Assembly: GCA_964016885.1 (NCBI GenBank) | Contig: OZ024752.1 | Span: 34,348,001-34,412,000, forward strand | Origin: Eledone cirrhosa | Lineage: Eukaryota | Length of the DNA stretch: 64,000 bases | Reading direction: 5' to 3' | Made by a program: the position numbers and the translations under genes | The notes under the pieces: model-generated | The model's database searches: none | What the model was told of the DNA's origin: nothing | The model's input: only the letters and a program-made list of their open reading frames with translations | Shown: positions 23,664 through 55,071 of the stretch, in pieces | Position numbering within the stretch: the stretch's first letter is position 1 | How the letters are laid out: every line of letters starts with the position of its first letter

Positions 23664-23893
23664 TTTATCATAAGTACAGATTAAAGTTTAAGCAAAGAAT
23701 CGCTGCTTTCACCCTTTTACGGGATCTTCAGAAACTGAGAAAAATCATTATTACTATATATATATATATATATATATTTCTCTCTCTCTCTCTCTCTCTC
23801 TATTATATATATATATATATATATATAAAAACATGAGAAGAAAGAAGAATACTGCGTGGTTTGCACATGGGTTACATATGATAAAAATAGTCC

Positions 23894-23964
23894 TTCGTCA
23901 GTGATTTTCCAACCATCATTGGTATTTCATCGCATTAAAAATCAGATACCTCAGGTTGGTGCGA
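23894..23964 (-). ncRNA. Candidate strand-reordered (pseudoknotted) hammerhead ribozyme, copy Y
   Basis: Minus strand: TCGCA CCAACC TGA GGTA TC^TGATTTT TAA TGCGA T GAAA TACC AAT GAT GGTTGG AAAATCA CTGACGA A; all helices pair; lies in a TA-flanked element at 23827-24045. Confidence 0.62.
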
Positions 23965-24041
23965 GCAATAACTAAAAAAAGTTATTGGGACCAGTAATCG
24001 CGTAAAGCGAGGGGGACAAGTGAACAACATAGAAGGATAAA

Positions 24042-28679: not shown

Positions 28680-28741
28680 TATATATATATATATATTTTA
28701 ATATAGATGAGATTCTACAGGACTAGAACTGTTTCATTCTT

Positions 28742-28790
28742 GATTCCTGATGATTTCTAAAGAATGAAACAGTTCTAGTCCTGTAGAATC
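28742..28790 (+). ncRNA. Type I hammerhead ribozyme in a fold-back PLE terminus
   Basis: gattc CTGATGA tttctaaagaat GAAA CAG ttctagtc CTG TA^gaatc; its 3' part is inverted at 28697-28741; a related inverted fragment lies at 28926-29078. Confidence 0.68.
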
Positions 28791-28877
28791 TCATCTATAT
28801 TAAAACTTTTATACTCTGCAATGTAATGAGTACCTTACTTACTGTGGTTACCTCCGATTCAACCCGGAATAACGTAC

Positions 28878-46863: not shown

Positions 46864-46915
<52 letters not shown>

Positions 46916-47174
46916 GAAATAGGGTACGCACAGGACAAAAGCGATAGAAAAAAATCGGAAAGATGGACTGACCCATGTCCTCAGTCAACCTCTAGAAATT
47001 ACTACAGTTTCGGCTAATAAAGGTCAGTATCGTTCATACCAGTGCACATTGGGACATAACAAAACAGGCAGAGACAAGCTATGCCTTTAGGCAAATTACA
47101 CAAATATAGAAAGCGCAAGGGCTGAGACAAAGGAGAAAAAAACATATATATACATATATATACTTACACACACC

Positions 47175-53523: not shown

Positions 53524-53558
53524 TGTTGTAACTATATATATATATATATATATATATA

Positions 53559-53828
53559 AGTATGTACACGTACATACATATATGTATACAGACGTACAGT
53601 AGTATGTATATATATATATACATACTACATGCACACATATATATATATATGTACGTATGGATTCACCGAACATTTATTATAATGCTCGGTGTGTTTGTAA
53701 ACAAACATCCCGTATTATGTTCGGTGAATCCATACGTACATATATATATATGTGTGCATGTATGTATATATATATATACATACTACTGTACGTCTGTATA
53801 CATATATGTATGTACGTGTACATACTTA
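53559..53828. repeat. ~270-bp fold-back inverted repeat
   Basis: ~115-bp arms ending ggattcaccgaacat / atgttcggtgaatcc. Confidence 0.85.
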
Positions 53829-53884
53829 TATTTAAGTAACAGCCGTACTAAGAGTGGGAAATGAAATATCGTTTCATTTTTTCC

Positions 53885-53922
<38 letters not shown>

Positions 53923-54157
53923 AGATTTGAATTCCTTTCAACTAAACTGTATCCATTCAAATCTTTCTATTTTTCTCCGGATTACTTTTGGAACTACAAC
54001 TGGAACCGTCGAGCAAACTCTACGTGAGCTGTCAATCTACCGTGTGTAATATTTATATTACAATACAACGGAAAATACTGTATATATATATATATAAAAA
54101 AACATAAGAAAGAATACTGCGTGGTTGCACATGGGTTACATATGATAAAAATAGTCC

Positions 54158-54229
54158 TTCGTCAGTGATTTTTCCAACCTTCATTGGTATTTCATAGCTT
54201 TAAAAATCATATACCTCCGGTTGGTGCGA
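54158..54229 (-). ncRNA. Candidate strand-reordered hammerhead, copy Z
   Basis: TCGCA CCAACC GGA GGTA TA^TGATTTT TAA AGCTA T GAAA TACC AAT GAA GGTTGG A AAAATCA CTGACGA A; one helix has two mismatches. Confidence 0.55.
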
Positions 54230-54329
54230 GCAATAGCTATATAAAGCTATTGGGACAAGTAAATCGCGTAAAGCGAGTGAGACAGTAAACAACAAGGAAG
54301 GATAGCAACGCAAAGATAGGAAAAAACAA

Positions 54330-54394
<65 letters not shown>

Positions 54395-54590
54395 AAAAGA
54401 GTCGAGACACCGACGGCTGAGCTCCGGCCGTTTCGACAGCTAGATCCGAACAATTTGGATCTAGCTGTCGAAACGGCCGGAGCTCAGCCGTCGGGGTCCT
54501 GACTCTTTTCCTATTACCCACTCTACTACCCTAAGTATCGAGTACTCTGATGCGTTATGGTCCACCTGGTATCTTACCACTCTTTCTTTG

Positions 54591-54624
<34 letters not shown>

Positions 54625-54707
54625 AAGTTTGTCCTCATCAGTGGCCTTCCAACCGTCGTAGGCATTTCGTCGCATTAAAGGCCATAACGACTTTGTTTAG
54701 CCGTTGC

Positions 54708-54778
54708 TCGCACCAACCTGAGGTATATGGCCTTTAATGCGACGAAATGCCTACGACGGTTGGAAGGCCACTGATGAG
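54708..54778 (+). ncRNA. Candidate strand-reordered hammerhead, copy X
   Basis: TCGCA CCAACC TGA GGTA TA^TGGCCTT TAA TGCGA C GAAA TGCC TAC GAC GGTTGG AAGGCCA CTGATGA G; inverted partial copy at 54620-54686. Confidence 0.62.
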
Positions 54779-54827
54779 GACAAACTTTTTCATATGTAAC
54801 CCATTTGCAGCGCCGCAGTTCCATTAT

Positions 54828-54863
<36 letters not shown>

Positions 54864-54917
54864 CCTGTAGAAGTAATCAAAGTGTGTATACGTTTTTTTT
54901 TTGGGGGGGGGGACACC

Positions 54918-54968
<51 letters not shown>

Positions 54969-55071
54969 GGGTGTCCCCCCAAAAAACGTATACACACTTT
55001 GATTACTTCTACAGGCAATATTTATTAGAATGCTGTTGAAGTGTGTATATATTTTTGGGGTAGTAGTGGTA

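Follow-up and report, generated by a model that had tools for sequence, protein, structure and literature searches.

Eckert et al. (2023) split the hammerhead ribozyme into the blocks C, G and S and, in addition to types I, II and III, which correspond to circular permutations of the order C > G > S, defined a type SGC comprising HRIMA-1 and a variant (PMC10085705). According to the accessible parts of this source, cleavage of type SGC was shown at the predicted site with rates of 0.007-0.13 per minute, monomers cleave co-transcriptionally, and all four stems are required. Stem I is typically connected to stem II by a 3-nt link, and a fourth helix binds the other sides of stems I and II; its join with stem III was flagged as not obviously compatible with the crystal structure. 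All 583 examples are metatranscriptomic, the RefSeq searches gave none, and scrambled strand order has so far been published for virus-like RNAs from soil only (PMC10085705). In the literature outside most subscription journals, the term 'type-SGC' was found only in Eckert et al. (2023).

Non-LTR retrozymes resemble the repeats described here in being non-coding tandem repeats of low GC content with one hammerhead per unit and a proposed mobilization by Penelope-like elements (PLEs) (PMC7229834; bioRxiv 10.64898/2026.07.22.740005). As far as these sources are accessible, retrozymes are defined and searched by type I hammerheads, whereas our copies show the order S > G > C; their size was first reported as 170-400 nt (PMC7229834) and given as 51-972 bp in the preprint, compared to units of 520-630 bp here. 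Eight of nine predicted Xenopus retrozyme dimers did not cleave (bioRxiv 10.64898/2026.07.22.740005). The pseudoknot (PK) hammerhead, compared by description, shares the trait of hammerhead chemistry with a helix as peripheral brace; it is described with pistol connectivity, and the accessible part of the source does not mention permutation (PMC11300833). Among PLEs, Craig et al. (2021) reported Naiads to be without a canonical hammerhead, applied the flags 'core' and 'half core' (eight half cores), and suggested that ribozymes may merely ride on PLEs (PMC8557442).

The motif in the window and its relation to type SGC

The stretch of Eledone cirrhosa DNA analyzed here, referred to as the window, comprises 64,000 nt (contig OZ024752.1, positions 34,348,001 to 34,412,000). 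The original prediction had marked a hammerhead core with reversed strand order at 54687..54781, and every segment it named is found at its coordinates in the window sequence. All parts of the motif lie on the plus strand. The upstream hairpin P0 (54686..54706; AACGAC / 8-nt loop / GCCGTTG) is truncated and is followed by TCGCA (54708-54712), the 5'-donated strand of the distal stem II with its partner at 54738-54742, by CCAACC (54713-54718), the 5' strand of the bracing helix (named helix 'I' in type SGC) with its partner at 54758-54763, and by TGA (54719-54721), the non-bulged strand of a kink-turn-like (k-turn-like) loop (3n U, 2n G, 1n A). Block S (54722..54727) combines the stem III strand GGUAU (54722-54726) with H17 (A54727); the adjoining stem I strand UGGCCUU (54728-54734) is connected to stem II by the 3-nt link UAA (54735-54737). 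Block G (54738..54751) consists of UGCGA (54738-54742) and C54743 of stem II and of G12-A13-A14-A15.1, with GAA at 54744-54746 and the stem III strand ATGCC at 54747-54751. Behind the bulged strand of the k-turn-like loop, TAC-GA-C (54752-54757; UAC, G1b, A2b, C3b), the 3' strand of the bracing helix, GGTTGG (54758-54763), runs directly into AAGGCCA of stem I (54764-54770). Block C comprises CTGATGA (54771-54777, C3 to A9) and G54778, which may pair with C54743. The 3' end of the element (54779..54830) passes from the closing-helix strand over the short end and along a tail of 40 nt, at whose end lies the long end, followed by (TA)n.

The window copy contains the full hammerhead core (C3 U4 G5 A6 N7 G8 A9, G12 A13 A14, A15.1-U16.1, H17) with its blocks in the predicted non-circular order S > G > C, which is not a circular permutation of C > G > S as in types I, II and III. 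There is no canonical-order reading at this copy, because no GAAA occurs within 200 nt behind CTGATGA. Contigs from independent public runs span the motif in the same strand order, which shows its presence only. The expectation that standard descriptors miss the motif was borne out: Rfam gave no match at gathering score in the window, and for the loci L003, L040, L207 and L115 no hammerhead family was among 59 matches at E<=10. The claim of a new architecture has to be withdrawn, since the order NUH > GAAA > CUGANGA was published as type SGC in 2023 (PMC10085705).

With type SGC, as far as its description is accessible, the motif shares the S > G > C order, the full core, a link of about 3 nt between stems I and II, and a bracing fourth helix whose 3' strand stands immediately before stem I. 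In contrast, the strands of stem II and of the fourth helix are located behind CUGAnGA in type SGC, judging by the SGC-1 oligos and the descriptor, while both are located 5' of block S here. In our copies, the chain opens at position 10.1 or beside it, with a hairpin and a closing helix sitting at the opening, and stem III continues into the fourth helix via the k-turn-like loop or a bulge. Type SGC is defined by at least two further pairs behind CUGAUGAG, whereas the pair 10.2-11.2 occurs in 7 of 43 of our copies, which is below the null. Our own re-implementation of the published type-SGC descriptor matched none of 101 distinct copies, and one of 101 with a relaxed core; this may explain why the RefSeq search missed them. 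As block C has no stem II strand of its own, we file the motif as an SGC variant and not as a member as defined. Judged by its sequence, the motif is in effect a type SGC re-opened near position 10.1, a variant and not an architecture of its own; its novelty lies in the chain opening point, in the brace by a k-turn and in being found in the DNA of animal retroelements. No description of this wiring, of its scale in an animal genome or of the link to Naiads and RLE LINEs was found in the literature outside most subscription journals and Repbase/Dfam notes.

A pattern representing the 3' half (GAAA, 7 nt, GA, 12-16 nt, CUGANGA) matched four times in the window versus 0.02 times expected by shuffling, namely at the main motif, at an inverted truncated arm and at two copies of other families. 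The arm is a second, 5'-truncated copy on the minus strand (54620..54686), which is 99% complementary to 54726-54798 and extends down to the short 3' end. A copy of the second family with a CUGACGA core lies 0.45 kb upstream of the main motif (54116..54255, minus), and a copy of the third family, intact including P0, is located at 23855..23995 (minus). As claimed, stem I reads TGATTTT/AAAATCA in both (23895-23928 and 54159-54193, minus). The AGCTA replacing TGCGA in the copy at 54159-54193 is a private change, the family of that copy having AGCGA. The region 46900-47080 (minus), with CTGAGGA at 46984, resembles a decayed member of an older family with the same motif, the one represented by L294-L320. 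Near-perfect inverted repeats flanked by (TA)n at 53551-53834, 54390-54514 and 54854-55025 are apparently inverted truncated insertions of other repeats.

The span marked originally covers the core and falls short of the full extent, as intact copies add the upstream hairpin P0 and a closing helix, in which GGAC behind the core is a possible partner of a 4-nt strand 5' of P0 (TGTC or GGTC). The cut in the window copy is at 54686, and part of P0 and the closing-helix strand are missing from it; if transcribed through, this copy would be masked by a 73-bp hairpin with the inverted arm. It is a 5'-truncated insertion paired with this arm and probably inactive in place, and its truncation and the facing arm make it a poor test construct.

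Covariation, k-turn-like loop and copies in the genome

For the covariation analysis, 192 anchored copies (101 distinct), picked by spacing and not by pairing, were reduced to 52 representatives at 90% identity. Nine of these carried a foreign 5' part (inversion junctions or truncations) and were dropped, which left 43 rows, with the invariance of the core being built in by selection. In these diverged copies, all four predicted helices lie above a tree-aware null. The bracing helix shows 217 of 258 cells paired (null 138+-20) and 10.3 compensatory events (null 1.1), neither of which was reached in 500 simulations. Similarly, 222 of 258 cells are paired in stem I (6 bp; null 126, 0/500), with 8.7 events versus 0.8, and 152 of 172 variable cells in stem III (null 89, 0/500; events 23/500). 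The distal stem II is the weakest of the four in this genome, with 152 of 215 cells paired (null 107+-19; two of 500 simulations as high) and 3.6 versus 1.2 events (17/500); 5-6 bp complementary versions of it occur in the RLE-LINE and Naiad copies. The pair 10.1-11.1 (33 of 43 versus 22+-7; 42/500) is not significant. Of the stem II proposed originally, the 5-bp distal pairing is supported, and the pair G54778-C54743 does not reach significance on its own. Five slid-register controls stayed at null level, and the helix test on all 52 rows had a similar outcome with weaker stem II events (38/300).

A covariation check on a larger alignment had been proposed, and it is positive at the level of helices and negative at the level of single pairs: in a per-pair G-test with a tree null, none of the 26 proposed pairs reached E<0.05 with 43 rows, and likewise none with 52 rows. 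Proposed pairs nevertheless make up 10 of the top 25 among 2,628 pairs (43 rows). A pair-count tool found 84.6% of the cells paired versus 63.8% in shuffled and 27-46% in slid alignments, and RNAalifold, run blind, recovered the bracing helix and stem III. The bases linking stem I to stem II read T, A and A in 39, 40 and 42 of 43 copies, respectively. The lone fold of 54687-54795 has a z of 0.03 against shuffles and does not produce the proposed helices; support for the structure comes from covariation and not from folding energy. RNAfold finds P0 and the closing helix in three of four copies of non-coding families that were folded, not in the main-motif family, which misfolds even when intact; we count this against our best explanation. 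By the covariation of their sequences, the four helices are under selection and form a real, conserved RNA structure.

In a kink-turn, as described, two helices are separated by a bulge of 3 nt and, behind it, tandem G.A and A.G pairs (PMC12510878), and the loop between stem III and the bracing helix fits this sequence definition, as predicted. At positions outside the selection pattern, 1n is A in 41 of 43 copies and 2n is G in 29 and U in 10; one family has U at 2n, which we again count against the best explanation. The invariant GA of the bulged strand is no evidence, because GA was part of the selection pattern. At 3b.3n, 23 of 43 copies have U.U. The k-turn seems to be optional, as it is by eye absent from coral and squid Naiad versions. 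The loop would let stem III bend back to the bracing helix. K-turns can be bound by L7Ae-family proteins. The words 'kink' and 'k-turn' are absent from the supplement text of Eckert et al. (2023), as far as accessible (PMC10085705); if the fold cleaves, the k-turn would be a concrete answer to the question of stem III/brace geometry in type SGC.

In the 3.0 Gb of genome searched, a general motif pattern gave 20,384 matches versus 260 for the reversed pattern used as control; about nine among 100 listed matches look unrelated by eye. Eight of these 100 rows (e.g., C1:5753701-5753739) belong to a family of short palindromic repeats (ATCATCAGGAA...TTCCTGATGA) that have CUGAUGA on each strand; this family is related to window 28700-28800. 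Patterns for diverged families gave 1,104 matches versus 6 and 319 versus 9 in the controls, and P0 alone 10,922 versus 0. The main-motif family has 1,641 candidates, with full-length matches 99-100% identical among 40 scored; the other two families of the window have 1,556 and 1,440 candidates (the sets may overlap). P0 occurs in the paired variants CAACGAC/GCCGTTG, CAATAAC/GTTATTG, CGATAAC/GTTATCG and CAATAGC/GCTATTG. Out of 30 loci picked by P0 alone, 27 are in register; block G is intact in 26 and the whole core in 22 of these. The five core changes in the copies picked by P0 are all different, whereas stem changes are common to families. Read from the genome sequence, there are thousands of copies in many families, and the core is intact in most of them.

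Host repeats, Naiads and RLE LINEs

The main-motif family consists of a non-coding, pyrimidine-rich unit. In a set of 30 loci, some of which overlap, it forms tandems of 620-628 bp in 11 and occurs in both orientations (inverted pairs) in 11. The second family has a repeat period of approximately 525 bp, and most of the copies read are non-coding repeats of 520-630 bp, arranged in tandem or inverted within (TA)n and ending in Penelope-like tails of 40 nt. Behind the core, (TA)n starts at +14 in 9, at +54 in 13 and at +62 in 5 of 44 family copies, while 13 of the 44 continue beyond 140 nt. The two 3' ends at 14 and 54 nt are 40 nt apart, matching the tail of PLEs; in the window insertion, one arm carries the long end and the other the short end, so that a tail is present on one arm only. 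PLE insertions are recognized by partial tandems, an inverted 5'-truncated copy, a tail of 30-40 nt at one end and (TA)n targets (PMC8557442, PMC11167929), and the family copies show tandems, inverted truncated copies, tails and the (TA)n target. The Penelope-like terminus proposed originally is supported by tail and inversion signature, and the host range has to be widened to RLE LINEs as well as PLEs.

No autonomous ORF joined to the main-motif family was found in the loci examined, and its mobilizer is therefore deduced indirectly. A PLE ORF beside the copy at L232 was considered as host and rejected: it is a separate insertion, and its family has no CUGANGA in the 3' UTR (24 loci). Further PLE fragments near copies are likewise not joined to them. 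The three units did not match the Neptune-like and RLE loci of this genome. As side observations, L268-L291 (e.g., L275) represent an abundant, very young PLE with a C-terminal GIY-YIG domain and a CxC-type linker, for which 150 of 150 scored matches are 96-100% identical, many of them with open frames near 785 aa; its 3' UTR has no CUGANGA in the loci read. In L234 (minus), about 450 nt behind a GIY-YIG fragment, the 3' UTR of another PLE family contains a hammerhead-like core in canonical order whose stem II region is long.

Among 19 CTGATGA places shown from the published Naiad consensus sequences, eight reveal the same fold by eye, in that they have the order S > G > C, a 5'-donated stem II and a bracing helix, with differing stem letters (PMC8557442). 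In the parts of this supplement shown, the eight records are three from corals, two from octopus, one from Euprymna and two without a visible header, with one more doubtful; the k-turn is seen by eye in the octopus records only. Judged by eye, many families here agree with Naiad_Ovul and the preceding record (Naiad_Obim by file order) in fold, in k-turn and in the 8-nt P0 loop. Similar to Naiads as described, our repeats have (TA)n targets, partial tandems, an inverted 5'-truncated copy and a tail of 30-40 nt; in contrast to Naiads, they have no ORF. No Naiad ORF was located in this genome, and a Naiad-like short pattern gave eight matches versus eight in the control, some of them decayed motifs, with no ORF upstream. 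Due to the 8-nt P0 loop and k-turn shared with octopus Naiads, Naiads are the likeliest source or mobilizer. The idea that all 'half cores' represent this fold was discarded, as nematode Naiad half cores, where shown, resemble ordinary type I hammerheads whose stem II is long. At the 3' ends of ostracod or spider Naiads, a GAAA stands 35-50 nt upstream of CUGACGA, and these may be further rearranged hammerheads (PMC8557442 supplement, in part).

With a tight pattern, structured copies were found in none of 45 matches in viral contigs, none of 28 in prokaryote genomes and 4 of 58 in metagenomes, where the nulls do not show absence because the pattern fixes stem III letters. The four metagenome matches that pass the pairing test each lie shortly behind an ORF ending in an RLE-type domain, and their contigs look fish-like. 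The encoded protein matches L1 and R2 RT structures, and homologues of the ORFs are RT proteins of many fishes with R2-like names. These RT-RLE LINEs presumably belong to the Hero clade of the R2 superfamily. In relatives in this genome, found by protein alone, the fold directly follows the stop codon at 15 of 20 loci, and two copies stand in tandem 3.6 kb apart. Hence the 3' UTR of RT-RLE LINEs of the R2 superfamily carries the same fold as our repeats, with no sequence likeness outside the fold. In the RLE-LINE version, stem II is formed entirely from the 5' strand, and a 12-bp closing helix starts from A9. Ribozymes known from R2-superfamily LINEs, according to the sources accessible, are HDV-like and located at the 5' end, in contrast to the 3' fold described here.

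As for the enzyme mobilizing the non-coding repeats, the Naiad type is our favored candidate with moderate confidence; an RLE LINE is a possible but doubtful source, and any other enzyme is less likely still. More distant RLE-LINE families (L253, L258 and L263) contain S > G > C motifs with other stem letters near the RLE domain, two of which are decayed. In the window, an RT-like region (1045-2019, minus) has 24% identity to an RT-RLE protein over 337 residues.

Predicted cleavage and competing explanations

With fairly high confidence, we regard the motif as an SGC-type hammerhead, re-opened elsewhere, at the 3' end of a non-coding, retrozyme-like retroelement; self-cleavage of this fold is considered likely. 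By analogy with type SGC, the cleaved bond is predicted between 54727 and 54728. The monomer would fold such that stems I, II and III build the usual hammerhead core, and the 3-nt link and the bracing helix would hold the tips of stems I and II together, replacing loop-loop contacts. Cleavage would take place behind A54727, G12 serving as the base and G8 as the acid, and would cut tandem or read-through transcripts into unit RNAs of approximately 620 nt in this family, which may circularize. A PLE enzyme would then reverse-transcribe the unit RNAs into (TA)n from two internal starts 40 nt apart.

The position of the 3' ends at 14 and 54 nt behind the core is also what is expected of a start signal, and the fold could instead be a recognition or priming platform for a retroelement protein, its core being vestigial or cleaving only with protein help. 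In the parts of the source accessible, the Poseidon PLE hammerhead needs protein and can be dispensed with for in vitro insertion, and RNA-seq gave no reads with an end at its site (PMC11167929); furthermore, in the loci read of the abundant Neptune-like PLE of this genome, CUGANGA is absent from the 3' UTR, which indicates that PLEs can spread without one. We consider such a platform unlikely, as it would not need C3, G5, G8, G12, A13, A14, the A15.1-U16.1 pair and a non-G H17, and the core letters are fixed while the stems turn over between families, two retroelement classes and phyla.

Even less likely, in our estimation, is cleavage solely by way of a conventional fold from two units or molecules, in which S and C are provided by one and G by the next. 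Dimeric minimal PLE hammerheads set a precedent, tandem units are common, covariation cannot separate cis from trans, and the stem III/brace geometry was flagged by Eckert et al. (PMC10085705). However, the units are 520-630 nt apart, and 3.6 kb in the RLE-LINE version, while the conserved links of 0-3 nt between helices are needed by the monomer only; moreover, the published type-SGC monomers cleave co-transcriptionally in the accessible account (PMC10085705). The region is full of inverted repeats and the z of 0.03 for 54687-54795 is no better than chance would give, but a chance motif, or a by-product of template switching or palindromes at (TA)n that was passively amplified, is very improbable in view of compensatory changes that appear in register and not in slid registers, and of the recurrence of the fold, written in unrelated letters, among other element classes.

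If the re-opened SGC hammerhead cleaves, the statements that type SGC is in no known organism's genome and that Naiads are without canonical hammerheads would need revising, and a pseudoknotted hammerhead would be among the most numerous ribozymes of this genome. With moderate confidence, we suggest that the 5'-donated type SGC is the missing ribozyme of Naiads from corals to cephalopods, a 3' UTR module of fish-wide RT-RLE LINEs and a constituent of non-autonomous repeats numbering in the tens of thousands. In that case, RNAs with a non-circular permutation would be common in animal genomes, where two retrotransposon classes would either share them or have re-invented them, and the k-turn might act as a switch through which a protein, for instance of the L7Ae family, gates cleavage. 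The fold yields a descriptor usable on any animal genome and offers a test of the roles of 3' ribozymes in the life cycles of PLEs and RLE LINEs.

The 5' ends of copies at the scissile bond are suggestive of cleavage; the signal, which is without a control elsewhere in the unit, is weak because most joins lie in a T-run and the filter hides one (TA)n phase. Among 87 truncated rows inspected by eye, about 60 joins fall into the T-run 2-8 nt downstream of the predicted bond, whereas 21 rows are intact from +1 and two start one base later. The 21 divide into 10 that start there, 3 that start one base earlier, 3 further up and 5 ambiguous cases. In a set of 17 truncated copies, three look like internal indels, and of the 14 others one retains the four native bases ahead of the bond. 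In the window, the start of the inverted arm lies 1-2 nt upstream of the bond predicted to be cleaved, and in L354 the switch to other sequence occurs exactly behind H17.
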